A stretch of DNA of 20,000 nucleotides from an uncultured virus (IMG/VR IMGVR_UViG_3300032053_000012) (taxonomy: Duplodnaviria; Heunggongvirae; Uroviricota; Caudoviricetes), in IMG/VR virus record IMGVR_UViG_3300032053_000012; one strand, written 5' to 3'. This document shows, piece by piece, positions 2,938-18,875 of this stretch. The first letter of the stretch is position 1, and each line of letters starts with the position of its first letter. The translations under genes were made by a program, and so were the position numbers. The notes below the pieces were generated by a model, which was not told the DNA's origin, ran no database searches, and worked only from the letters and a program-made list of their open reading frames with translations.

Positions 2938-4149
2938 ATGACGACCGACGCCTACGATGCCGCGATCGACGCACTGCTAACGACGAAGAATGGCGTCCTC
3001 GATCTCGTGCGCGATTTCGTGCGCATGAACCCGTCCCTCGTCCCAGACGTCGCCCACGACGACGCCACGCACGCGCTCGACGTTCTTCTGAGGATGGCGC
3101 GCGACGCCGGCTTCAAGGCAGCGACGGAACAGACCAAGGGGAAGGGCATCCTCGAACTGCTGCGCGAGGCGGGCGACGACGCGGTCCTCATAACGAGGCA
3201 GAAGATGAAGGAGGAGATCGACGCCGAGGTCGCGGCGGCCTACCAAGCCGCGGCGGCCGTCTGCTACTTGGAGTCCGGCGGCGACGCCGCCCTCGTAGAC
3301 CTGGGCCTGCACGTACACCTCACGAGAGCCGCGCGGTCGCTGGGCGACCGGATCCTCGCGCTGACCCCGGCGTCTGCGCGGGCGGCGCTCCACGCGCGGC
3401 TCGAGGACGCGAGGGACCGCGCCGTCGGCGACGCGCGGGCGGCGTTCGACGCGGTGAGGGCGACCATCCGGGCGGAAGCCCGCGAGGAGGGTCGGGTCGA
3501 GGAGTCGCACACGCTCGACAAGCACCACGCGTACGTGGACAGGATCAAGGCGGAAGCGAGAGCGGAGGGGGCGGCCGAGGCCGAGCGTGGGATCCGTGCC
3601 GCGCTCGTCGACTGGTGCGACGACGACGAAGACGTCTTCGACGCGATCGATCACGTGAGCGAGGCGGCAGACGCGGGCGACGAGGCGGTCGCGAAGCTCG
3701 CCAGGACGACCGCGCCGTTCCGCGGGTCGACGACCGAGTTCCTGCGCCGCGAGCTCGGGGCGGAGGCGTTCGACGCGCTGTGGGGGCCGCACCTCGAGCG
3801 CGTGGGCGACGCGATCGACCTGCTGCGCGCGCGGGCGCACGCGGACGGGTTCGAGGAGGCGAGGCGTGCCGCGCGGAGGGAGTCGTGCGACCGCGCGCGG
3901 GGAGGGGCGCCGCCCATGCCGTCGCTGCCGGGGGTCGCCCCGCGGTGGGTCGTGCGCGGGCTGTTCCGGTGCGCTGAGTCGAGGGAGCAGGACGAGGGCG
4001 CGGCCGGCGGCTCCGGCCTGTGGGACGACGAGTCGCGCCGCGCGGTCGAGTGGATGCGCGCGAACGTCGCCGACCACGCGGGGAACATGCCCGCGTCCGA
4101 CGCGCCAGGCACGCCAGCCGAGCCAGCCGAGAAGGAGCCGTCGCGATGA
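2938..4149 (+). CDS. Hypothetical alpha-helical phage protein
   Basis: ATG 2938 lies 1 nt after the previous stop, GAGGG upstream; Ala/Glu/Arg-rich with recurring A-R-x-(E/D)-G motifs. Confidence 0.75.
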   Translation: MTTDAYDAAIDALLTTKNGVLDLVRDFVRMNPSLVPDVAHDDATHALDVLLRMARDAGFKAATEQTKGKGILELLREAGDDAVLITRQKMKEEIDAEVAAAYQAAAAVCYLESGGDAALVDLGLHVHLTRAARSLGDRILALTPASARAALHARLEDARDRAVGDARAAFDAVRATIRAEAREEGRVEESHTLDKHHAYVDRIKAEARAEGAAEAERGIRAALVDWCDDDEDVFDAIDHVSEAADAGDEAVAKLARTTAPFRGSTTEFLRRELGAEAFDALWGPHLERVGDAIDLLRARAHADGFEEARRAARRESCDRARGGAPPMPSLPGVAPRWVVRGLFRCAESREQDEGAAGGSGLWDDESRRAVEWMRANVADHAGNMPASDAPGTPAEPAEKEPSR

Positions 4150-4661
4150 CGACCACGACGACTGAGACCACGACCACGACCGCGACGAGGTCGACGAGCC
4201 CGTCGACGGAGCACCCGTCGTTCCCGCACGCGTTCAAGTCGCGCTACTACGTCGAGCGGGGCGACGGCTGGGACGCGACGGTGAAGGTCGACTACGACGG
4301 GCGGAATCCGCTCTCGATCCGGAAGATCATGTCAGCGAAAAAGATGATCGATCGACTGAGGCTTGTCGCCACGCGAGCTGAAGTCTCGCGAACGAAGAAA
4401 GGCCATCACCTACGCGTGTGGCTCCGTTCGCCTCATGGGCGACCTGTCCCGGCACGTACGATCCTGCGTCTTCAAGCCGTCTTCGGCGATGATCCAATGC
4501 GACAGAAGTTCAACACAGCTCGCGTGCGTCGTGATGAGCCAGGTTGGAACGTGCTATTTACATGCAAATACAGAAATGGCATCCTGCTCTACCGTGAAGA
4601 AGCAGACGCTGAGAAGACGATCGAGGTCTGTAAGACTCTCAACTTATGCAAGGTGGACTAG
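4146..4661 (+). CDS. Small AEP/primase-polymerase-like protein (putative)
   Basis: ATGA overlap, AAGGAG upstream; VKVDYD (hDhD), SRTKKGHHLRV (T/SxxGxH) and downstream FGDDPMR match the order of AEP motifs I-III. Confidence 0.55.
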   Translation: MTTTTTETTTTTATRSTSPSTEHPSFPHAFKSRYYVERGDGWDATVKVDYDGRNPLSIRKIMSAKKMIDRLRLVATRAEVSRTKKGHHLRVWLRSPHGRPVPARTILRLQAVFGDDPMRQKFNTARVRRDEPGWNVLFTCKYRNGILLYREEADAEKTIEVCKTLNLCKVD

Positions 4662-5157
4662 ACCACTCATCGACCGAAGGGGATGGCGAAGGAAACCGGC
4701 AGTTGAAAGGTTCAACGCGAAGGTAGACCGCAGCAAAGGTCGGGAAGCGTGTTGGCCGTGGCTCGGGTTCAGATCACGTAAGGGGTACGGTAGTTTTGGA
4801 GTCGATGGAAAACTGTGGATTGCCTCACGCGTGGCTTGGATCCTCGCGCACAAGCGAGACATTCCAAAAGGAAAACAGGTTCTTCACAAGTGCGACAATC
4901 CGCCGTGCATGAATCCTGCGCATATCTATCTCGGGACACCGAAGGACAACATGGACGACAAGAAAAGGCGCGGCCGAGATAACCGACCGAATGGTGAGGA
5001 CTTCAAGAGTGCGAAACTCACCGAACGACTCGTCGTTGACGTACGAAAGAGATTTGCCGCAGGCGAGAGCATGCGGAGTCTCGCTCGAGAGATCGGATGC
5101 AGTCATACGACGATCAAGGGCGCGATCAGGCGAGTAACATGGAAACACGTATCGTGA
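4576..5157 (+). CDS. HNH endonuclease (HNH_3-like) with C-terminal HTH; start uncertain
   Basis: ERFNAKVD...CWPWLG...GYGSF...VLHKCDNPPCMNPAHIYLGTPKDNMDD followed by AKLTE...SMRSLAREIGCSHTTI. The nearest in-frame starts (ATG 4576, GTG 4594) lie inside the upstream gene. Confidence 0.9.
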   Translation: MASCSTVKKQTLRRRSRSVRLSTYARWTRPLIDRRGWRRKPAVERFNAKVDRSKGREACWPWLGFRSRKGYGSFGVDGKLWIASRVAWILAHKRDIPKGKQVLHKCDNPPCMNPAHIYLGTPKDNMDDKKRRGRDNRPNGEDFKSAKLTERLVVDVRKRFAAGESMRSLAREIGCSHTTIKGAIRRVTWKHVS

Positions 5158-6724: not shown

Positions 6725-6948
6725 ACAGAGACGGCGACGACGGGCGAGGGTGGCGCGAGTACCTGCACGTCCGACCGGCGAAGGAGGCGCGCTGCGAGGT
6801 GCACGACTGGCCGACGGCGGGCATGCCGCGGCGGCTGGTCGAGGCGATGCGCGCGCGCCACTGGAGCGGCGGGATCGACGTCTGCGGCGACTGCGTCGAG
6901 CGCGCGAAGAACGAGGCCGACCGCGAGCGCCAGGCGGTGACGCCGTGA
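6721..6948 (+). CDS. Small hypothetical protein, putative Zn-binding (CxxH...CxxC)
   Basis: ATGA overlap, GGAGG/GAGAAG upstream; CEVH...CGDC. Confidence 0.7.
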   Translation: MNRDGDDGRGWREYLHVRPAKEARCEVHDWPTAGMPRRLVEAMRARHWSGGIDVCGDCVERAKNEADRERQAVTP

Positions 6949-7478
6949 TCAACCTCGCCGGGCGGAGCGACTGCGACGAGTACATCGCGCGCGAACTGCG
7001 GCACGCGCGGATCACTCCTGAGCGATGCGAGCCGTCGGGACGAGAGGTCAACGCATCGATCGTCGGTCGCCTACCCGGCTTCCTCTTCAAGCGCGCCTGG
7101 TACTACTACGTGGTCGAGGGGCGTGTGCCGCTCGCGGTCGCGCACGCGCTCTACGAGGATCCGCTCGGGCGCGACGACGTGCGCGTGTCTGGGCACTGCG
7201 GCTGCCCGCCGCCCGCGGACCCGTGGCTGAAGTACGTCGACGCGGACGGCAAGGAACTGCTGACGCTCGGCGACCCGAGGCACGACGTGATGCATGGCGA
7301 CTCCGAGATCGTGCTTCGCGTGAATGCGGAGATGCGGGCGATGTACCGGTGGGTCGAGGACCGCGCCGCCGCGGCCTCCGAGGTCTTCGTCGACCTCTAC
7401 CATATCGACAGCGAGGCTGGGCTGCGGCTGTTCGCCGACGCCGTGCGGGACACCACGACCACCAGGAGGACGCCGTGA
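6945..7478 (+). CDS. Phage hypothetical protein
   Basis: GTGA overlaps at both ends; aromatic-rich globular sequence (FKRAWYYYVV, VRVSGHCGCPPP, YHIDSEAGLRLF). Confidence 0.8.
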   Translation: MINLAGRSDCDEYIARELRHARITPERCEPSGREVNASIVGRLPGFLFKRAWYYYVVEGRVPLAVAHALYEDPLGRDDVRVSGHCGCPPPADPWLKYVDADGKELLTLGDPRHDVMHGDSEIVLRVNAEMRAMYRWVEDRAAAASEVFVDLYHIDSEAGLRLFADAVRDTTTTRRTP

Positions 7479-7777
7479 GCACTAACAAAGCAGACGACCG
7501 AGACGACCCGGCGCGCCACGTCGCGCGCGCGGTCGAGTCGGCGGAGCGGCTGCGCGACGCCTGCCAGCAGGCGATCCTCGACCTCGGCGAGGCGATCGTA
7601 GCCAGGGACGACAGCGAGGCGCGGCTCGAGGCCGGGAGCGAGAGGGAGCGGGTCGAGGGGTCGACGCTGCGCAACCTCGCCGCGCTCAACCACACGCGCG
7701 TGCGGATCTGCCTCGAGCGGTGCGTCGAGCTCGGGCGTGGCCTCGGGCGGCTCGGGATCACGGGGAGGTCGCGGTGA
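7475..7777 (+). CDS. Hypothetical protein
   Basis: AGGAGG SD then GTG in a GTGA overlap. Confidence 0.7.
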   Translation: MSTNKADDRDDPARHVARAVESAERLRDACQQAILDLGEAIVARDDSEARLEAGSERERVEGSTLRNLAALNHTRVRICLERCVELGRGLGRLGITGRSR

Positions 7778-8706
7778 TCCACGACCGCCCCACCTACACC
7801 GCCACTGACCGCGTCCCCACCCGCGCGGAGGCCGAGGCTGCGGCGGCCGACGTGCTCGCCCACGCGACGCGCACCTATGTCGGCGCGGCCGTGGATTTCG
7901 CCGTCTTCGTGCGCGCGGAGGCGGCCGAGCGCGCGGACCTGGCCGGGTACGTCCGCATGCGGGCCGGGAACTGCCGCAGGACGGAGGCGGCGGCGATCGC
8001 GGTCGGCGACGTGCTCGCGGCCGCGACGCCCGAGGTCGCCCTCCTCCCGCCCGAATCGCGCGCACTGCTCCTTCGTCGCCCACTCGTCCCAGATCGTGCA
8101 GCCGTCCGCGCTTGGCGCCACTTCGGCGGCGACTACGGGTTCCTCACGAAGTATCCGCAGGCGCGATTCGCGGCGTCGATCGAAAACGGCTTCGACCAGA
8201 TCAAGTGGCTCGTCGCCGAGATCAAGAAGAACCCGAGCAGCCGGCGGCTCGTGGTCTCGGCGTGGCACCCGGTCGACGCGGGCGTCGTGGCACTGCCGCC
8301 GTGTCACACGTTGTTCCAGTGCTGCGTGCAGGGGCCGAGGGACGGCAGCACTGCTACCAGGAAGCGCCTGTCGCTCCACCTCTACATGCGCAGCGCCGAC
8401 TACTTCCTCGGCGTGCCGTTCAACATCGCGAGTTACGCGCTGCTGACGCACCTGCTGGCGCGCGAGGCGGACCTCGACGCGGGGACGCTCACCGTGTCGT
8501 TCGGGGACGTGCACCTCTACCGGAACCACCTCGACCAGGCGCGCGAGCAGCTGTCGCGCGAGCCGAGGTTGCTCCCTAAGGTCCTGTTCCAGGGAGACCA
8601 CACGGAGGTCCCGACCTCGATCCTCGACCCCGGGTGGAGAAAGGAGCACGTCTCGATCGTCGGCTACGACCCGCACCCCGCGATCAAGGCGGCGGTGTCG
8701 GTGTGA
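7774..8706 (+). CDS. thyA: Thymidylate synthase ThyA, rearranged: canonical from W at 8113 onward, N-terminal third replaced (possible pseudogene or chimera)
   Basis: GFDQIKWL, KKNPSSRRLVVSAW, ALPPCH (catalytic Cys), LYMRSADYFLGVPFNIASY (Asn at the dUMP-specificity position), GDVHLYRNH, YDPHPAIKAAVSV. DRTG, FPL.TTK, ELLWF and GPVYG are absent on this strand. Confidence 0.9.
   Translation: MIHDRPTYTATDRVPTRAEAEAAAADVLAHATRTYVGAAVDFAVFVRAEAAERADLAGYVRMRAGNCRRTEAAAIAVGDVLAAATPEVALLPPESRALLLRRPLVPDRAAVRAWRHFGGDYGFLTKYPQARFAASIENGFDQIKWLVAEIKKNPSSRRLVVSAWHPVDAGVVALPPCHTLFQCCVQGPRDGSTATRKRLSLHLYMRSADYFLGVPFNIASYALLTHLLAREADLDAGTLTVSFGDVHLYRNHLDQAREQLSREPRLLPKVLFQGDHTEVPTSILDPGWRKEHVSIVGYDPHPAIKAAVSV
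8029..8109 (-). pseudogene. thyA: Inverted 81-bp thyA fragment
   Basis: The minus strand translates to ADGCTIWDEWATKEQCARFGREEGDLG, the ThyA segment that normally precedes PVYGxQWR. Confidence 0.9.
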
Positions 8707-8966
8707 GCGTCGTGAGCGTCGCGGAGACGAGGACCAACGCTGACTACAGGGACGTCCTCCTCGACGGCGAGACGGGGCGCACGCTGCGCGTCTACCCGGC
8801 GGCGCAGGGCGCGATCGTAATGCGCGTGTTCTACGCCGCGGAGGGCGTGCTCGACCACTACGGCTACGGCGAGCTCGTGGTCGACCTCGACGCCGCGGAC
8901 GCCGTGGTCGAGGCGGTCGCGGCGACGGCGCGGGACGCGCGCGCGCGCGAGGGAGCCGGGCGATGA
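8703..8966 (+). CDS. Hypothetical protein
   Basis: GTGA overlap with the thyA stop; alternative GTG at 8712 within a GTGAGCGTC duplication. Confidence 0.7.
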   Translation: MSVVSVAETRTNADYRDVLLDGETGRTLRVYPAAQGAIVMRVFYAAEGVLDHYGYGELVVDLDAADAVVEAVAATARDARAREGAGR

Positions 8967-9412
8967 TGAAGCGAGCGACGCAGCTCGGGCGCTACCTCGC
9001 GCGCGCGGCCCACGCGCGGATCGGCAGCACGTCGGACGGCGTGTGCTACGTCGAGATCGACTTCGCGGTCGAGCGCATGGTCTTCGCCCCGCCGCAGGCC
9101 GTGCGCGGCGTGCCGATCGAGGGGCCGGTCTCGGGCGAGCACCTGCGCTGGCGGGGCTGGTACACGCGCGGTGGGGTTCACAGGGCGTGCAGCGTGGTCG
9201 CGACGACGGGCGGGACGCTCGAGCGCACGGACGGCAACGGGGTCGTGGTGGAGGACCCGACGAGCCTCGACGGGGTGGGGTCGCGGGCGTGCGTGGTGGA
9301 CGTGGTGCGGGTCGAGTGCGACGACGCGGAGGCGGCGGGTGCGCACAGGATGTTCGTGACGGCCGTGGAACCGGTCGACGGGATCGAGAGACAGGAGGAA
9401 GCGCGGCGATGA
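8963..9412 (+). CDS. Hypothetical protein
   Basis: ATGA overlap, GGGAG upstream, 149 aa. Confidence 0.65.
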   Translation: MMKRATQLGRYLARAAHARIGSTSDGVCYVEIDFAVERMVFAPPQAVRGVPIEGPVSGEHLRWRGWYTRGGVHRACSVVATTGGTLERTDGNGVVVEDPTSLDGVGSRACVVDVVRVECDDAEAAGAHRMFVTAVEPVDGIERQEEARR

Positions 9413-9681
9413 CCACGACGACGAAGACGAGGACGGCGGCGGACGCGACGACGCGGGAGGTCGTGGCGGCGTCGCTGCTGCGCGCGTACTACGACGGCAG
9501 GCGCGACGCGGCGCTGTCCCGGCTCGGGCGTCCGCCGCAGGGGCTCGACGACCCCCCGGACGACGAGGACCTAGTCCGGCTCCTCTGGGAGAGGGACGAC
9601 GCGGAGATGGAGGAGATGCGGCGCCGGGCGACGGAGGTCGCGGACGCGGTGCTCCTCGCGATCGAGGAGGCGCCGCGATGA
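9409..9681 (+). CDS. Hypothetical protein
   Basis: AGGAGG SD, ATGA overlaps at both ends. Confidence 0.72.
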   Translation: MTTTTKTRTAADATTREVVAASLLRAYYDGRRDAALSRLGRPPQGLDDPPDDEDLVRLLWERDDAEMEEMRRRATEVADAVLLAIEEAPR

Positions 9682-10169
9682 GAAGCGAAGAGGTCGACTT
9701 CGTGCGGTGGCTCTGCGTCTCGGTACCGACCCAGCGGTACCGCGCCGCCTTCCGCGAGTCGCGCGACGTGGGCGAGAAGGTGGTCACGCTCTGCGAGATC
9801 CTGAACGAGACGTGGTTCGGGTCGGCCTGGCGCGCGCGGATCCCCGACCGCGAGCGCATGGAAGCCAAGAGGCGCAGAACTGCGCGCGGCGTGCGCCTGC
9901 TCGTGCACATGGTCGCGCGCGACTCGACGGTGAACCTCACTCCGCCCTTCGAGAGCTCGCGCGACCGCATGTCCCTCGCCGAGGCAGCCGCGTGGTGCGA
10001 CGAGGAGTACCGGCGCTACGCCGCGCGTCCGTACCGAGGAGAGTCCGCGGCCGAGTACCAGGACGCCGGGTACCGCGCCGCGCTCGCCGAGGTCGCGGCG
10101 ATGTGCCGGAGCGGGCGACCGGCGCGACACGTAGGGATCGTGGGCGTGGCAGGCGGGCGACTGCCGTGA
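9678..10169 (+). CDS. Hypothetical protein
   Basis: GAGGAGG SD, ATGA overlap, 163 aa. Confidence 0.75.
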   Translation: MRSEEVDFVRWLCVSVPTQRYRAAFRESRDVGEKVVTLCEILNETWFGSAWRARIPDRERMEAKRRRTARGVRLLVHMVARDSTVNLTPPFESSRDRMSLAEAAAWCDEEYRRYAARPYRGESAAEYQDAGYRAALAEVAAMCRSGRPARHVGIVGVAGGRLP

Positions 10170-10369
10170 GCGCGAACGCGAGCACGACGGCCGAGATGCG
10201 GCGCCACCTGCGCGAGCTCGCGCGGGCGGTGATCAGGCTGCAGACGTGCGCGGCGCGGCCAGACGGCGGGTGCATGCTGCTGAGCCCGGACGGCCACCTC
10301 GACGCGGCCTACCGGCGCGCGGAGCAAGCCGAGGCGTTCCTGCGCGGGATCGAGCGGGCGCCGTCGTGA
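10166..10369 (+). CDS. Small hypothetical protein
   Basis: GTGA overlaps at both ends; 67 aa. Confidence 0.6.
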   Translation: MSANASTTAEMRRHLRELARAVIRLQTCAARPDGGCMLLSPDGHLDAAYRRAEQAEAFLRGIERAPS

Positions 10370-10842
10370 CTGACCGAGACACCGGGTACGTCGACCTCGA
10401 CGACGAGCGGCGCCGACGGAGGCGGCGTGCGCTCGACGAGATCGGTCGCAGGGCGCGCGCGCAGGGGGCGATGCTCGCCCAGCTCGCCGCCGCGGTCTCG
10501 CGCCTGGTCGAGGTCGACCGGGAGATCCTGCGCGCGGCGTTCGACCACCCGGTGCCGCCGATCTACGAGTCCGGCGTGCGCTACTGGCTCCGGCACGACG
10601 ACGAGTGGTGCGACCTGCGCGTGGTGCTCGAGCAGGGACACGGCGACGTGGTCGACCTCGCGGCGTGGCGCGCGGCCGAACTGCTGGAGGCCGGCGTCGA
10701 GGCGCGGGTCCGGTTCGTGCAGAAGTTCATCGGCAGGATGGATCTGCGAGGCGGCGGGTGCGGGTTCGGCGGCGGGTTCGTCGTGGTCGCCGAGGTGCTG
10801 GCGGGAGGCCGCGTCGAGCGACCCTACGAGGTGCTGCGGTGA
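10366..10842 (+). CDS. Hypothetical protein
   Basis: GTGA overlaps at both ends; protein-like 3' part of track ORF 10246..10842. Confidence 0.65.
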   Translation: MTDRDTGYVDLDDERRRRRRRALDEIGRRARAQGAMLAQLAAAVSRLVEVDREILRAAFDHPVPPIYESGVRYWLRHDDEWCDLRVVLEQGHGDVVDLAAWRAAELLEAGVEARVRFVQKFIGRMDLRGGGCGFGGGFVVVAEVLAGGRVERPYEVLR

Positions 10843-10964
10843 GCACGTCGAATTTCATCCAAGTCGACCGCGAGAGGATCGAGGTGCGTCAGCAAAACGC
10901 CGAGCCGCCCGCGCTGTGCGTCGCGGCACTCGAAGTCTGTTTGCGACGATGGAGGAAGCGATGA
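10839..10964 (+). CDS. Very small hypothetical protein (41 aa)
   Basis: Bridges its neighbours with GTGA and ATGA overlaps; no other support. Confidence 0.4.
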   Translation: MSTSNFIQVDRERIEVRQQNAEPPALCVAALEVCLRRWRKR

Positions 10965-11152
10965 CCAAAAAGGACCAACTCAAGCGGATCGAAAACGAAC
11001 GCGACGACGCCTATCTTGCCGGTCGCGCCGGCATGGTCCCCGCTGCGTGGAAGGAGCTTGCGTTGGCGCTGTGGACTGATCGCAAGCGCAGCCAGGCCCG
11101 CGTGGACGCCGCGATCGCGGCGCTCCGACGCTTGGGCGAGGAGCTACCGTGA
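10961..11152 (+). CDS. Small hypothetical protein
   Basis: GGAGG SD at 10951-10955, ATG 10961 (MTKKDQLKRIENERDD...). Confidence 0.7.
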   Translation: MTKKDQLKRIENERDDAYLAGRAGMVPAAWKELALALWTDRKRSQARVDAAIAALRRLGEELP

Positions 11153-11262
11153 GCAGCGCCGACGCCGACGCCGACGACGTGATGGTGTGGTGCGCCACGT
11201 TCAGCGAGCGCGTGCGGCACGCGCACGAGCCGCCGTCGGCCGTACGACTCCGAGGAGAAGCC

Positions 11263-12006
11263 ATGACGAGCACGACAATGTTCAAGTACGAGCTACCGAA
11301 GACGCTCTCGGACGCCGCGGTGGTCCTGCTCTCGGGCGGGATGGACAGCGCGGCGTGCCTCGCGCTCGCGCACCGGTGCTACCCGGCGGGGCGGGTGCGC
11401 GCGCTCGTGGTCGACTACGGCCAGCCGCACCGCGACCGGGAGACGACGGCCGCGGGGTTGATCGCCGGGCACGTCGGCGTCCCGAGCGAGCGGATCTGCG
11501 TCGCCGACGCGATGGCGGCGATGCGGCCGAGGCGCATGGCGAGGGCGGTGCACGAGCCGGCAGCGGGCGGCGCGCAGAGGCCGCACCCAGCGGAAGTACC
11601 GCAGCGGAACACGGTGCTGCTGTCGCTCGCGGCGGGGCACGGCATGGCGTGGTGGCCGGACGCGTCGCTCGACCTGTGGATCGGGGCGACCTCGGACGAC
11701 GCGGCGGGGTTCGCGGACTGCCGGCCCGAGTTCATGGCGGCGGCGTCGCACTGCTTCTCGACCGCGAGCCCGCGGACCGTGCGCGTGGTTGCGCCGCTGG
11801 TCTCGACGAGCAAGCGCGAGCTCGTGGCGAGCGCGAGCCGGGACGTGCTCTGGCTGCTACGGAGGTCGTGGTCGTGCTACCGGGGCGGGGAGCGACCGTG
11901 CGGCGAGTGCACGCCGTGCGTGCTGCGGGCCGACGCGTTCGAGGCGGCCGGGATCCTCGCGTGCGTCGACCCCGACCCCTCTCCGAGCCAGGGAGACCGG
12001 ACGTGA
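11263..12006 (+). CDS. queC: 7-cyano-7-deazaguanine synthase QueC (or QueC-family ATP pyrophosphatase)
   Basis: VVLLSGGMDS PP-loop, DYGQ, VPQRN, FADCRPEF, APL...K, and WSCY...CGECTPC Zn site. GAGGAG SD before ATG 11263; an in-frame coupled GTG at 11149 is an alternative start. Confidence 0.92.
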   Translation: MTSTTMFKYELPKTLSDAAVVLLSGGMDSAACLALAHRCYPAGRVRALVVDYGQPHRDRETTAAGLIAGHVGVPSERICVADAMAAMRPRRMARAVHEPAAGGAQRPHPAEVPQRNTVLLSLAAGHGMAWWPDASLDLWIGATSDDAAGFADCRPEFMAAASHCFSTASPRTVRVVAPLVSTSKRELVASASRDVLWLLRRSWSCYRGGERPCGECTPCVLRADAFEAAGILACVDPDPSPSQGDRT

Positions 12007-13770: not shown

Positions 13771-14733
13771 ATGGAGGACGAGCGGTTCCAGAGCGAGGGC
13801 TACGTGGGCGCGGGAGGCCGTCGCTACCACGTCACGGTGACGCTCGCGGGCGCGCCGAGGTCTTCGTCTCCGATGTCTTCGTGGGTCCTGCCGCGCAGGC
13901 CGATCGAGGAGACGGCGGCCGAGGTCGTCCGGTCGGGGTCGTCGCCCGAAGTCGTCGCCCTCCACGTGGACGACCTGTCTGCCTCGTCGAGCGGCGCGAC
14001 CCTAGTCATGGAGTCCGCGACCCCTCCCCCGGCGATCCTCGCCAAGCTGCTGCGGGCGTGGGCGCGATCCAAACTCGTCCGCGTGAGGCGGGAGGGTCGG
14101 CAGTCGAGCCGGCTCGACCGGATGCAGGCGGCGAAGAGGGAGGTCGACGAGGCGCTGCGCACCGTCGGCCCCGTGCTCCCGGACCGACCGCTCGGGCCGT
14201 CCGTGCTGTGGGTCGACCGCGCCGTCGCGCAGGCGGCGATGGAGGTCGCCGCGGGGGTCGGCAGGGCGCGGGGGACGAGGGCACCGCCGAGGTCGTGGGT
14301 CTACTGGGTGACGGGCGCGGGCGAGATCGGGAGCCTCATGCAGGGGGGGCGAGCGCGCCTCGCCGGGATGGTGCGCGAGATGCAGGCGCGCGGGCTGCCG
14401 GTGCAGCTCGCGCGACTCGGCAGGAACAGGCGGAGCGTGCTCGTGGTGGGCGGCCGGGGCGAGGTCACGGACGCGTCGGTGGGGGGCGGGCGCTGGCTCG
14501 TCGACGAGCACACGGGCGAGATGCTGCGCGCGGTGACGTTCGACGACCTCGCGGCGGGGCTCGACGCGGACCCGCGCGCGGTGGGCGACCTGCAGCGCGG
14601 CGTAGACTACGCGTGGACGGAGCCGCGCACGGGGAGGCGCGTGCTCGTCGTGCCCGCCGAGTACGGGTCGAGGTCGTGGAGCAACCGGGCGAGGTCGAGG
14701 CCGAGGCCGAGAAGGAGGAACGCATGGCTCTGA
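13771..14733 (+). CDS. Hypothetical protein (320 aa)
   Basis: ATG after GGGG; fills the interval between neighbours; Arg-rich C-terminus. Confidence 0.65.
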   Translation: MEDERFQSEGYVGAGGRRYHVTVTLAGAPRSSSPMSSWVLPRRPIEETAAEVVRSGSSPEVVALHVDDLSASSSGATLVMESATPPPAILAKLLRAWARSKLVRVRREGRQSSRLDRMQAAKREVDEALRTVGPVLPDRPLGPSVLWVDRAVAQAAMEVAAGVGRARGTRAPPRSWVYWVTGAGEIGSLMQGGRARLAGMVREMQARGLPVQLARLGRNRRSVLVVGGRGEVTDASVGGGRWLVDEHTGEMLRAVTFDDLAAGLDADPRAVGDLQRGVDYAWTEPRTGRRVLVVPAEYGSRSWSNRARSRPRPRRRNAWL

Positions 14734-15440
14734 TCGACGACCCGGAGAAGACGCGCGCGAAGCTCGACGCACTGGCCGACTACGCCGCGCAGGTCGTGGC
14801 TGGGGCGAAGCTGAACCTGCGGAGCATGACGCGTGAGCCGCCGATCAACGTGCGGAGGGAGGAGGCGCGCGCACCCGAGCCTTGGCGGGACAGATACGAT
14901 CGACACGGCAGGCCATACTCGGTCGAGGTGCACGTCAGCGTGGTCATGCCAGACAACCCGAACGGGACGACCGGCTTCCCTGTGTTCCGAGCGAAGATGG
15001 GAAGACTCACCGCCTTCGGACCCACTGAAAAGTGGGGCGTGGTCGTGCAGCTCGGGCGCAGGTCTCCGGGCCGCGAGGCGCCCGAGGCCAAGACGCTCCC
15101 GAGCAAGGCGGCGGTGCGCAGGGCGGTGCTCGAAGCGGTCGAGCCGTACCTGCCGAGGGTGGGAGCGCGCGCGGACCCGCGCGAGGTCGCCGCGTTCGTG
15201 GCCGCCCAATCCTACATGGACCTCGAGCGGTCAGAGCGGTCAGAGCCGGGAGAGGTCCCTGGCACGCACCTCCGCTTCGCGACGCGGCAGCACGGCAGCG
15301 TCGGCGACGGGCGACCCGGGCGGGAGGACGTGCTGCACGCGCGCGAGCTCAAACGGGCACTGCATGCCGAGTACGGCCGGCGCGTCCGGGTAGCGGTGGA
15401 CACGGTCGACGAATGGACCGACCTCACCGTAGAGGTCTAG
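14724..15440 (+). CDS. Hypothetical protein
   Basis: AAGGAGG SD before ATG 14724 (MALIDDPEK...). Confidence 0.78.
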   Translation: MALIDDPEKTRAKLDALADYAAQVVAGAKLNLRSMTREPPINVRREEARAPEPWRDRYDRHGRPYSVEVHVSVVMPDNPNGTTGFPVFRAKMGRLTAFGPTEKWGVVVQLGRRSPGREAPEAKTLPSKAAVRRAVLEAVEPYLPRVGARADPREVAAFVAAQSYMDLERSERSEPGEVPGTHLRFATRQHGSVGDGRPGREDVLHARELKRALHAEYGRRVRVAVDTVDEWTDLTVEV

Positions 15441-15722: not shown

Positions 15723-15729
15723 GGAAAAC

Positions 15730-16587
15730 ATGCCCACGATCCAGATCCTGCCTGCGCCGACGCCGTCTCCCATGCCGTCCATCGGAGGGCGCGTCTTCCT
15801 GTGGGACTCCTCGACGACGTGGGACGTGATCTACGCCGCGGTCGTCGCGTCGGGAGGCGGTGCGGTCGTGCTCGTGCAGAACGACGGGATCAGTTCGAGG
15901 GAAATGACCCCGCTTCCTGGCGGCGGCGACACCGATCTGTCAAACATCCTGTTTGTCGGTCTGCTCGGGAGCGACGGGAAGCCGCCGACGATCCAGATCG
16001 ACAGCCTGGGCGCCGGCGGGTTCTCGCTCGGCGGCAACCACAACATCACGTCGAAGGACATCGACTGGGCGACGTACTACCGGATCGGGAGCGGGAGCCC
16101 GGCGTGCTGGCGGTTCGATGGCGGGAGCATGGCCTCTGCCACCGCGAGCGACGCCTACAACGCGCTCAGCTTCAAGTTCGTGCTGCACAACCGAGCGATC
16201 GTCGACGGCAGCGCGTGCACGGATGGACTCGTCACCGGGACAAACCAGGGGGCGAGCGTCTACATGACGACCTCGTCGCAACTCGGTCCGAAGGTGATCT
16301 TCTGCATGAAGGGTCTCCCGCCATACCCGACGTGGAGCGTGGAGCGCGACTCCTCCTGCTCACTCGACCCAAACGCGTTCCTCAACCCGGCAGGCGGCGG
16401 CACGCTGATCGACACGCTCTCGGACAAGAGCCAGTTCGTCGATCCATCGCGAGGGCCTACGCTCGCGAGGCCCACCCCCGCGTTCCCAGGCATCCTCGTG
16501 GGCCAGCAATACTTCGACACCGACCTCGGCTACCCGATCTGGTGGGACGGCAGCCAGTGGATCGACGCTAACGGCACGCCTGTGTAA
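15730..16587 (+). CDS. Putative tail fibre/spike-type structural protein
   Basis: AAGGA SD; G/S/T-rich beta-type sequence; C-terminal GPTLARP...GQQYFDTDLGYPIWWDGSQWIDANG module typical of phage fibre/spike proteins. Confidence 0.7.
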   Translation: MPTIQILPAPTPSPMPSIGGRVFLWDSSTTWDVIYAAVVASGGGAVVLVQNDGISSREMTPLPGGGDTDLSNILFVGLLGSDGKPPTIQIDSLGAGGFSLGGNHNITSKDIDWATYYRIGSGSPACWRFDGGSMASATASDAYNALSFKFVLHNRAIVDGSACTDGLVTGTNQGASVYMTTSSQLGPKVIFCMKGLPPYPTWSVERDSSCSLDPNAFLNPAGGGTLIDTLSDKSQFVDPSRGPTLARPTPAFPGILVGQQYFDTDLGYPIWWDGSQWIDANGTPV

Positions 16588-16605
16588 GCTCAAAGGAAAA
16601 ACACA

Positions 16606-17841
16606 ATGCCAGTAATCCCCATCCTTCCCGCTCCTACCCCATCTGGTGGAGCAGGCTTTCCGGTACTCGACAGCGTCTTCCTGGTTGAGAACGTCGTCGA
16701 TACGACCAAGCAATTCAACACGAACCTAAGCGGTCAAGGTCCTGGGACGACGACGACGCTGCGCACTACTGCGACGATCAGTCGTCCGTTTCGACTGCCG
16801 GACATTTCAGGCACCGCGATCGTTCAGGAAGACGCGACCGGCCAAGTTTTCATGGGGATTGGCGTCACGACGTCGCTTCACGGTTCAAACGCCGGACTTC
16901 AGTACAGCACCACGACGCCGAACCGCGCGCAGTTCCGAGAGAATCAGTACGGAGCGAACACCGCAGGCGCAGGGATTACGACGTTCAAGAGCAGAAACGC
17001 CGTGATCGGTGCGCTTGGCGCCGTGCTCCCCGGCGATCTAGTCGGACGCTGGACCTCGATTGGAGTCCCCGCGAACGGCGTGAGTCTGAACCTGTCCGCC
17101 TTGATTTCGGTGCAGGTACCAACCGCGTACGTGCCCGTGATTACCGATGCATTTCTGCCTACCGAATTTGAGATCGCGCTTGTCCCGATCACCGCCACGA
17201 CTGGCACGCGCCCGGTTTTCAAAGTCTCAAGCGACGGCGAGACGCAGACGCTACGAGGCAGCCGCGCCGGCGGCCCCTCGACGCTTCCGGCCGCCCTTGG
17301 CGCCGGCGCGCTTCGCTCGTCCGATGCCGTGCTACCCAACGGCGCGATCGTCGGAAGTCCTGGAGATTTCTACACCGAGACGACCACCGGAACCGCTTGG
17401 ATCAAGGAAACCGGGATCGGCACAAACACGGGATGGGTTTCGGCTCGTACGCCGCAAAACCTACAATTTGCAGGCACTATCATTGGTGCAGGCGCCGCCG
17501 TGCCTGGGTTCCTCTCAAATAGTGCGTTCACCGCTACCGGCCCGGTGGCGCCGTCCTATCGACGTGGCACCGCGAGTCGCTTCCTACAAGTCTCCTGGAA
17601 CATCACGATCAACACTTTGGCCGTGACCTCGAGCCTGCAGGTATTACGCAATGGCGTGGTGATCCCAGGCTGGCCCCTCTTTCTCATCCTCGCCGGAAGC
17701 CTTGGCGGCCCTACCAATTTCGGCGGCACGTTCACCGTCGCATTTGCTCCCGGCGATACGATCGACGTCTCGTTTGGCTCGAACGGCCCAGCGATCGGAC
17801 AGACAGCACAAATCGCAGTGTCGATCGATCTCATCCCATGA
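16606..17841 (+). CDS. Putative tail fibre-type structural protein
   Basis: AAGGA SD; 411 aa G/T/A-rich; PNGAIVGSPGDFY...WIKETGIGTNTGW resembles a common phage fibre motif; lower GC than the flanks. Confidence 0.68.
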   Translation: MPVIPILPAPTPSGGAGFPVLDSVFLVENVVDTTKQFNTNLSGQGPGTTTTLRTTATISRPFRLPDISGTAIVQEDATGQVFMGIGVTTSLHGSNAGLQYSTTTPNRAQFRENQYGANTAGAGITTFKSRNAVIGALGAVLPGDLVGRWTSIGVPANGVSLNLSALISVQVPTAYVPVITDAFLPTEFEIALVPITATTGTRPVFKVSSDGETQTLRGSRAGGPSTLPAALGAGALRSSDAVLPNGAIVGSPGDFYTETTTGTAWIKETGIGTNTGWVSARTPQNLQFAGTIIGAGAAVPGFLSNSAFTATGPVAPSYRRGTASRFLQVSWNITINTLAVTSSLQVLRNGVVIPGWPLFLILAGSLGGPTNFGGTFTVAFAPGDTIDVSFGSNGPAIGQTAQIAVSIDLIP

Positions 17842-17872
17842 ACTGAGCGAAATCGAAAAGGGAGATTCTTCA

Positions 17873-18347: not shown

Positions 18348-18875
18348 ATGACCGTCACCCTCTGGCACGGAGCGCAGCGCTGGACGGGGCCGCCGCGGAT
18401 CCTACCGGCCAAGACACACAAGGACGTCGAGTACGGCCCCGGGTTCTACCTCACGACTAGCCCCGAGGTCGCGCGTAAGTACGCGAAGGGCGGGGGCAGA
18501 CTTCTCCGCTTCGAGGTCGAGACACCGCTGGTCTGGGTCGACTCCGTGCGCGTGCCAGCGAAGGACGTGATCCGCTTCGTGCGCGAAGTGCCGAGACTGA
18601 AGCAGAGGAAGGCCCTGCTCGACGACGTCGTAGAACACGCACTGCGCGCCGAGCAAGCCGGGCGATCCGGGGTCGTCGCCGACGTACTCGGCAACCTAAT
18701 GAACTACTACAAGACCGACCACGGCGAGCCAGGCGTCGAGCTTGTGAGGTTCTACCTAGACCACGGGATCGACGCCGCTCGCGTGACCCGCAAGGGTCTC
18801 GCTGGACAAGACGAGTACGTGATCCTCTACGACCTGAGCAAGATCAAGGCGTGGACTATGCAGTCGTCGAAGTAG
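18348..18875 (+). CDS. ADP-ribosyltransferase-fold protein (H-Y-E type)
   Basis: LWHG, YGPGFYLTT, ARKYA and GIDA...DEYVI in the canonical ART strand order. Confidence 0.75.
   Translation: MTVTLWHGAQRWTGPPRILPAKTHKDVEYGPGFYLTTSPEVARKYAKGGGRLLRFEVETPLVWVDSVRVPAKDVIRFVREVPRLKQRKALLDDVVEHALRAEQAGRSGVVADVLGNLMNYYKTDHGEPGVELVRFYLDHGIDAARVTRKGLAGQDEYVILYDLSKIKAWTMQSSK

Follow-up and report, generated by a model that had tools for sequence, protein, structure and literature searches.

A thyA pseudogene fused to a truncated neighbouring gene in an uncultured phage, probably the product of a recent natural rearrangement

Results and discussion

A three-part open reading frame at the thyA locus

The stretch of DNA analysed here (the window, 20,000 nucleotides) has a GC content of about 72%, and the contig of the fused open reading frame (ORF) at its thyA locus is 132,043 bp long. 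The ORF lies between two hypothetical genes, A and D, and joins the beginning of another hypothetical gene, B, to a short inverted piece of thyA and to the remainder of thyA in the sense orientation. The features of the locus are as follows, with L031 numbers referring to a relative described below.

7475..7777, plus strand: gene A, conserved hypothetical, unaffected (GC3 0.93; its TGA stop at 7775–7777 overlaps the GTG at 7774)
7774..8706, plus strand: fused ORF of 310 codons, made up of gene B codons 1–85, 27 antisense-derived codons and ThyA residues 106–303
7774..8028, plus strand: gene B codons 1–85 (a 110-codon hypothetical gene in relatives), from blastn against L031 and the coding signature
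8028..8029, no strand: left junction, L031 1637 joined to the reverse complement of thyA (L031 2200/2199), with one shared base (g, 8028)
8029..8109, minus strand: inverted thyA codons 74–100, the minus strand reading ADGCTIWDEWATKEQCARFGREEGDLG (tblastn, blastn, GC3)
8110..8111, no strand: right junction, with 2 nt (gc) common to L031 2118–2117 and L031 2215–2216
8110..8706, plus strand: thyA codons 106–303 and the stop codon (tblastn, PF00303)
8703..8966, plus strand: gene D, hypothetical, located directly after thyA in L031 and L032; its GTG start overlaps the thyA stop (GTGA)

GTG 7774 is a sensible start for the fused ORF because it shares a GTGA with the stop codon of gene A, and gene D is translationally coupled to the fused ORF through a second GTGA overlap. 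Gene A has no Pfam or PHROG family; its protein is 99–100% identical in the relatives L031 and L032, where the gene sits immediately upstream of gene B.

The thymidylate synthase family PF00303 does not match the window ORF over its whole domain and covers only the last 194 residues, with residues 135–328 of the ORF 7720–8706 aligned to profile positions 90–266 of 266 (184 bits, Pfam). The profile is covered from position 2 to 266 in intact relatives (317 and 297 bits). We used the closest intact ThyA relative (P0002, 303 aa) as a tblastn query against the 20-kb window. Its residues 106–303 matched 8110–8703 on the plus strand with 98.5% identity and its residues 74–100 matched 8109–8029 on the minus strand (24 of 27 identical, E 6.5e-13), whereas residues 1–73 and 101–105 found no match better than E 2.3 anywhere in the 20 kb. 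At the nucleotide level, the inverted 84 nt form a reversed match of 92% identity (blastn, E 5e-28), which is far beyond chance, and the piece is likewise reversed relative to L031–L034, with 90–95% identity.

The codon-position GC profile follows the same boundaries. A plus-strand coding signature runs through 7774–8028 in the same frame as thyA, and the high-GC third position falls in the minus frame over 8029–8109, a segment that the plus strand reads as 27 meaningless codons. That the ORF is nevertheless unbroken is unremarkable in DNA of about 72% GC, since an ORF of 529 codons spans the same region on the minus strand.

The thyA remnant retains the PCH, SRR, RSAD, FN and HLY motifs, which correspond to invariant columns in a 22-sequence alignment (window residues P176, C177 and H178; S156, R157 and R158; R206, S207 and D209; N217; H247 and Y249). 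The roles of the P-C-H cysteine, SRR, RSAD, the FN asparagine and H-x-Y are known from the enzymology of the Escherichia coli and Lactobacillus casei proteins.

Pfam, tblastn, blastn and the GC profile bear out every detail of the three-part ORF described in the original prediction. The alignment likewise agrees with its claim of a canonical ThyA C-terminal part with PCH, RSAD, N and HLY intact, and the DRTG, TTK, ELLWF and PVYG motifs that it reported missing from the window belong to an enzyme whose residues 1–73 and 101–105 remain unmatched in the 20 kb. The first 85 codons had been called unrelated to ThyA and foreign: they are indeed unrelated to ThyA but are not foreign, as they correspond to the start of gene B in relatives.

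The intact locus in relatives defines the breakpoints

The relatives L031, L032, L033 and L034 are DNA recovered from a metagenome collection via protein matches. Two of them, L031 and L032, carry the intact order A–B–C–thyA–D. In L031, whose flanks are 98% identical to the window, gene A ends at 1386 and is followed by gene B (1383–1715, 110 codons), gene C (1712–1903, 63 codons), thyA (1900–2811) and gene D, so that gene B stands two genes upstream of thyA. The gene order is the same in L032, with 95% identity for genes B and C. For gene B, no Pfam match exceeded the cut-off. Gene C encodes two CxxC pairs (CxxC...CxxC) and weakly matches PHROG 18256, a family to which no function is assigned (E 1e-4).

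Alignment with blastn resolves the window into three blocks: 6734–8039 pairs with L031 343–1647 (98%), 8028–8111 pairs with L031 2200–2117 in reverse (92%) and 8110–11246 pairs with L031 2215–5324. The same three-block pattern is obtained with L032. These alignments place the breakpoints to the base. Window position 8028 equals L031 1637, and the following 479 nt of the relative (L031 1638–2116), which comprise gene B codons 86–110, the whole of the 63-codon gene C and thyA codons 1–73, are missing from the window. The next 84 nt (L031 2117–2200), corresponding to thyA codons 74–100 and the junction bases, are present as the reverse complement. A further 14 nt (L031 2201–2214), containing the PIYGF codons (thyA codons 101–105), are missing as well, and collinearity returns at L031 2215. 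Altogether, 577 nt of the parental sequence have been replaced by 81 nt of reverse-complemented thyA sequence, a net loss of 496 nt, or 1 modulo 3. In the parent, the reading frames of gene B and thyA are offset by one base; the loss of 496 nt corrects for this offset and so fuses them.

The event is recent, because the inverted piece keeps its minus-frame GC3 signature and differences from L031 are few. Within the thyA remnant, 12 of 597 nt differ from L031, eight of them at third codon positions, and they result in three amino-acid changes.

The short piece sits inverted inside a gene, as would be expected of a programmed invertible or shuffling segment flipped by a recombinase. We give this reading almost no credence: none of the 12 inverted pairs listed in 7850–8300 brackets 8029–8109, no recombinase family was detected among the 33 ORFs of the window (Pfam/PHROG), thyA is plainly collinear in the relatives, and re-flipping the 81–84 bp piece leaves thyA unrestored since 493 nt are missing. 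The original prediction had itself noted that re-inversion alone would not restore the gene, a point upheld by this deficit. Its suggestion of a rearranging locus with the 5' half of thyA elsewhere in the genome finds no support, given that thyA is contiguous in the relatives, that tblastn detected no other thyA piece in the window and that no inverted repeats surround the flipped piece.

Independent assemblies and the origin of the junctions

We compared positions 7300–8900 of the window with Logan contigs, rather than raw reads, of four sequencing runs (X1–X4). The phage genome stems from a sediment metagenome, and the runs that best match the window are sediment metagenomes. X1 contains 99% of the sampled words of the window and is possibly its source sample; its contigs have depths of 88.6–92.3 and show no difference from the window. 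One X1 contig (341 nt, depth 89.2) covers 8057–8397 without a single difference and spans the right junction, with 53 nt on one side of it and 288 nt on the other. Bridging by an independent assembly is limited to this junction, and that assembly is from the possible source run. At the left junction, positions 8029–8056 are uncovered among the X1 contigs listed, one of which ends exactly at 8028.

The other runs document the parental form. An X2 contig (1472 nt, depth 9.6) holds the complete intact arrangement, with the additional 479 and 14 nt and with the 84 nt on the other strand. A 668-nt contig from X4 and a 346-nt contig from X3 each follow the window without a difference as far as 8028 and diverge beyond it, and a second X4 contig has the intact orientation at 8028/8110. 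Intact-joint contigs are reported for X2 and X4, and none for X1 among those listed. The breakpoints are specific to the genome of the window because the X2–X4 contigs either keep the intact form or diverge exactly at 8028. The parental allele is found in this type of habitat too. At least one of the novel junctions is present at full depth.

Both X1 and X4 also contain a contig in which at least 255 nt of unmatched sequence join the window from 7999 onward. This contig may come from another organism or another variant.

These data bear on whether the rearrangement arose in vitro, as a library-amplification chimera of the multiple-displacement (MDA) type or as an assembler chimera, in a phage that really has an intact thyA. 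The allele is known from one sample only. According to Lasken and Stockwell (2007, PMC1855051), MDA chimeras are mostly inverted sequences with intervening deletions, primed by 2–21 nt of complementarity; the left junction resembles the chimeras described there in its inverted sequence, its intervening deletion and its short complementarity.

Random chimeras are, however, individually rare and have a single junction, whereas the window allele combines two junctions 81–84 nt apart and stands at the depth of its flanks; a single molecule with two switches at a distance of 84 nt would be rarer still. A chimera is expected in a minority of reads and at a depth below that of its flanks, but the second, independent X1 assembly spans the right junction at a depth of 89.2 versus 88.6–92.3. 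The intact joint, found among the listed contigs in X2 and X4, is absent from those of X1. A de Bruijn assembler can make a misjoin only at a shared repeat; the junctions have no more than 1–2 nt in common, which effectively excludes an assembly chimera. An amplification artefact is unlikely, and we regard an in-vitro origin as a whole as improbable. The amplification or assembly chimera listed in the original prediction is accordingly disfavoured by the 1–2 nt overlaps and by the bridging of the right junction at full depth.

Our preferred reading, to which we assign a probability of roughly 80%, is that a recent natural complex rearrangement, most simply described as a two-step template switch, gave rise to a thyA pseudogene fused to gene B.

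Proposed mechanism of the rearrangement

We infer that a two-step replicative template switch is the most economical mechanism. Synthesis of the nascent plus strand would have halted inside gene B (L031 1637) and restarted some 560 nt ahead, at L031 2200, where about 1 nt paired with the template of the opposite strand. Backward copying of 84 nt (L031 2200 to 2117) would then have been followed by return to the original template at L031 2215 with 2 nt of pairing, 14 nt past the first landing point.

FoSTeS and MMBIR are replicative template-switching models of complex rearrangement. The present allele resembles FoSTeS/MMBIR-type and quasi-palindrome-type strand switches in having two junctions with minimal microhomology (1 nt and 2 nt), a nearby inverted template and flanking deletions, and its parental allele is known (L031, L032 and the X2 contig). 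It further resembles template-switch events in that the return point lies close to the first landing point. The inverted copy stems from nearby sequence and the return occurs 14 nt beyond L031 2200, as a switch-and-return model predicts. The allele differs from such events in occurring naturally in an uncultured phage whose sister populations carry the parental form, and in that the mechanism is read from the product only.

The same natural event and the same dead gene could have come about through breakage and end-joining, with a small fragment re-ligated in reverse. Overlaps of 1 and 2 nt are typical of non-homologous or microhomology-mediated end joining and would fit break-and-join repair as well as template switching, and the HNH endonuclease gene located 3 kb upstream makes nuclease-made breaks conceivable. 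This route would, however, require four breaks within about 600 bp (L031 1637/1638, 2116/2117, 2200/2201 and 2214/2215) versus two switches, and random breaks do not predict a return point 14 nt from the landing point. Moreover, no end-joining gene was detected in the 20 kb (Pfam/PHROG), although the host could supply one. We consider end-joining possible, if rather unlikely, and retain template switching as the preferred mechanism.

The left breakpoint is the centre of a weak, GC-rich quasi-palindrome (L031 1622–1651, 83% complementary), to which we give no weight because 26 such pairs occur in 900 nt. Among the possibilities raised by the original prediction, the evidence favours the template-switch rearrangement yielding a dead or a neofunctionalized chimera, and this in its dead form; the neofunctionalized form is far less likely.

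Fate of thyA and of the fused protein

The remnant resembles ThyA (PF00303, PHROG 160, the subtype with the ATxEQCARFGR insertion, phage or bacterial), since residues 106–303 are 98.5% identical to the 303-residue relative. It differs from a complete PF00303 domain in that residues 1–73 and 101–105 are deleted and residues 74–100 lie on the other strand. The DRTG, TTK, ELLWF, IWDEWA and DLGP(I/V)YG motifs are present in 21 of 21 aligned relatives and none is encoded in sense in the window ORF. The ORF thereby lacks the N-terminal elements (the DRTG arginine, LLTTK, the ELLWF glutamate and the IWDEWA tryptophans), with IWDEWA found on the opposite strand only, as well as the tyrosine loop of DLGP(I/V)YG, the PIYGF codons being deleted. 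These elements take part in substrate and folate binding in the ThyA of E. coli and L. casei.

Structure prediction had been proposed as a check in the original prediction. The AlphaFold2 model has a mean pLDDT of 59.8, with values below 50 for residues 1–85 and 98–111 and of 70–89 across the greater part of the remnant. Confidence is lacking for the N-terminal 111 residues, as is consistent with a remnant. Judging from its sequence, the fused protein is almost certainly catalytically dead because the N-terminal third of the ThyA fold and the PIYG tyrosine are missing. As a description of the gene, a thyA pseudogene joined to a truncated gene B fits best, and gene C has been lost entirely. We infer that, in that sample, the phage can dispense with thyA, gene C and the C-terminal end of gene B.

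A plausible advantage of the in-frame fusion is that translation can still proceed to the overlap (GTGA) with gene D. The in-frame outcome could equally be a 1-in-3 accident, and an open frame says little about selection, given this prior and the occurrence of long ORFs in all frames.

ThyA is an obligate dimer in which the partner subunit supplies the arginines of the SRR motif. A functional chimera would be either a new protein built on the C-terminal two thirds of ThyA or a dominant-negative subunit acting with the ThyA of the host. The frame is preserved, the allele stands at full depth in X1, the SRR, PCH, RSAD, N and HLY motifs are kept, and the relative L032 also has an ORF-preserving scramble within its thyA. 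Yet the frame has a 1-in-3 chance of being preserved, and open frames are to be expected at 72% GC; no confidence is reached in the model of the first 111 residues, and the ThyA core is incomplete. The event, known from a single occurrence, is also too young to show a signature of selection. We consider a functional chimera highly improbable. Retention of the chimera as a dead ThyA subunit that throttles host dTMP synthesis, or recurrent ORF-preserving remodelling by template switching within the phage group, would be a similarly long shot; recurrence is hinted at because a second ORF-preserving scramble is found in the thyA of L032. The pseudogene remains our preferred description of the fused ORF.

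The scramble in L032 (10280–10460, encoding P0003) is itself a small complex lesion. The 17 nt encoding IRWLV of the conserved GFDQIRWLV helix are displaced upstream by about 75 nt, the usual site lacks 26 nt, and there is one additional C. The frame is still open (308 aa), but about 30 residues are scrambled, and GYGFDQ and IRWLVA can be read in the other two frames. The DQ(I/L) motif is kept in 20 of 21 aligned relatives. The lesion appears to be a second, independent and ORF-preserving one in the thyA of this phage group.

Occurrence and significance

The rearranged allele was seen in one sample only, and the protein cluster of the ORF 7774–8706 has a single member from a single contig. Coverage of the query does not exceed 79% for any of the 119 other proteins listed in a protein search; the best matches, P0002 (98%) and P0003 (84%), are full-length ThyA proteins of 303–308 residues that align only with the C-terminal 64% of the query. 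When the junction peptide was searched for in a collection of 5.8 billion clusters, the one match among 111 candidates was an ordinary gene B. Named phage records contain no close relative: the best DNA matches cover at most 21% of the query and the best protein matches at most 70%, all of them confined to the C-terminal part of thyA. The viral contigs of IMG/VR gave 30 loci, with a best identity of 48%, and none was useful.

The locus provides a clean natural example of a deletion-plus-inversion in which the parent and derived alleles occur in related environmental samples and the breakpoints are base-exact. It also indicates a phage that manages without its own thymidylate synthase and two small neighbour genes. 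For annotation it carries a warning, as a domain search would name the ORF "thymidylate synthase" though a third of the enzyme is missing. In other respects this is ordinary gene loss, a pseudogene and a complex rearrangement rather than a new system, unusual only for its clean reconstruction, and the thyA remnant does not open a new biological question.

Genomic context

Profile matches suggest that the window is phage genome, based on the following ORFs.

3–1481: match to a DNA-methyltransferase-like PHROG
4363–5157: HNH endonuclease with a C-terminal helix-turn-helix (PHROG 1872, E 3e-28; Pfam HNH_3)
11149–12006: QueC-like protein (Pfam PF06508, E 7e-39; PHROG 1550)
15730–16587: match to a virion-protein PHROG

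Family matches are otherwise sparse, and several of the ORFs belong to phage-only families without an assigned function; tRNA and Rfam scans of the window were empty. Between 1807 and 15440, nearly all starts overlap the previous stop by 4 nt (ATGA/GTGA) in a run of at least 20 consecutive plus-strand genes, which indicates tight translational coupling across this region.

Comparison with L032 reveals further differences in gene content. A low-GC island (4146–5157, about 59–60% versus about 72%) holds the HNH gene and resembles a mobile homing-endonuclease cassette; at this site L032 contains another, longer insert. A region with a GC content of 61–66% (15728–17858) is missing from L032, and a 411-codon ORF at 16606–17841 has no Pfam or PHROG match. 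Further inserts specific to the window lie at 14715–15381 and 18371–18842. The QueC-like and methyltransferase-like ORFs suggest that the phage may modify its DNA, possibly through a 7-deazaguanine pathway. Just upstream of the QueC-like gene, L032 carries about 1.6 kb of extra sequence, placed between window positions 11045 and 11226.
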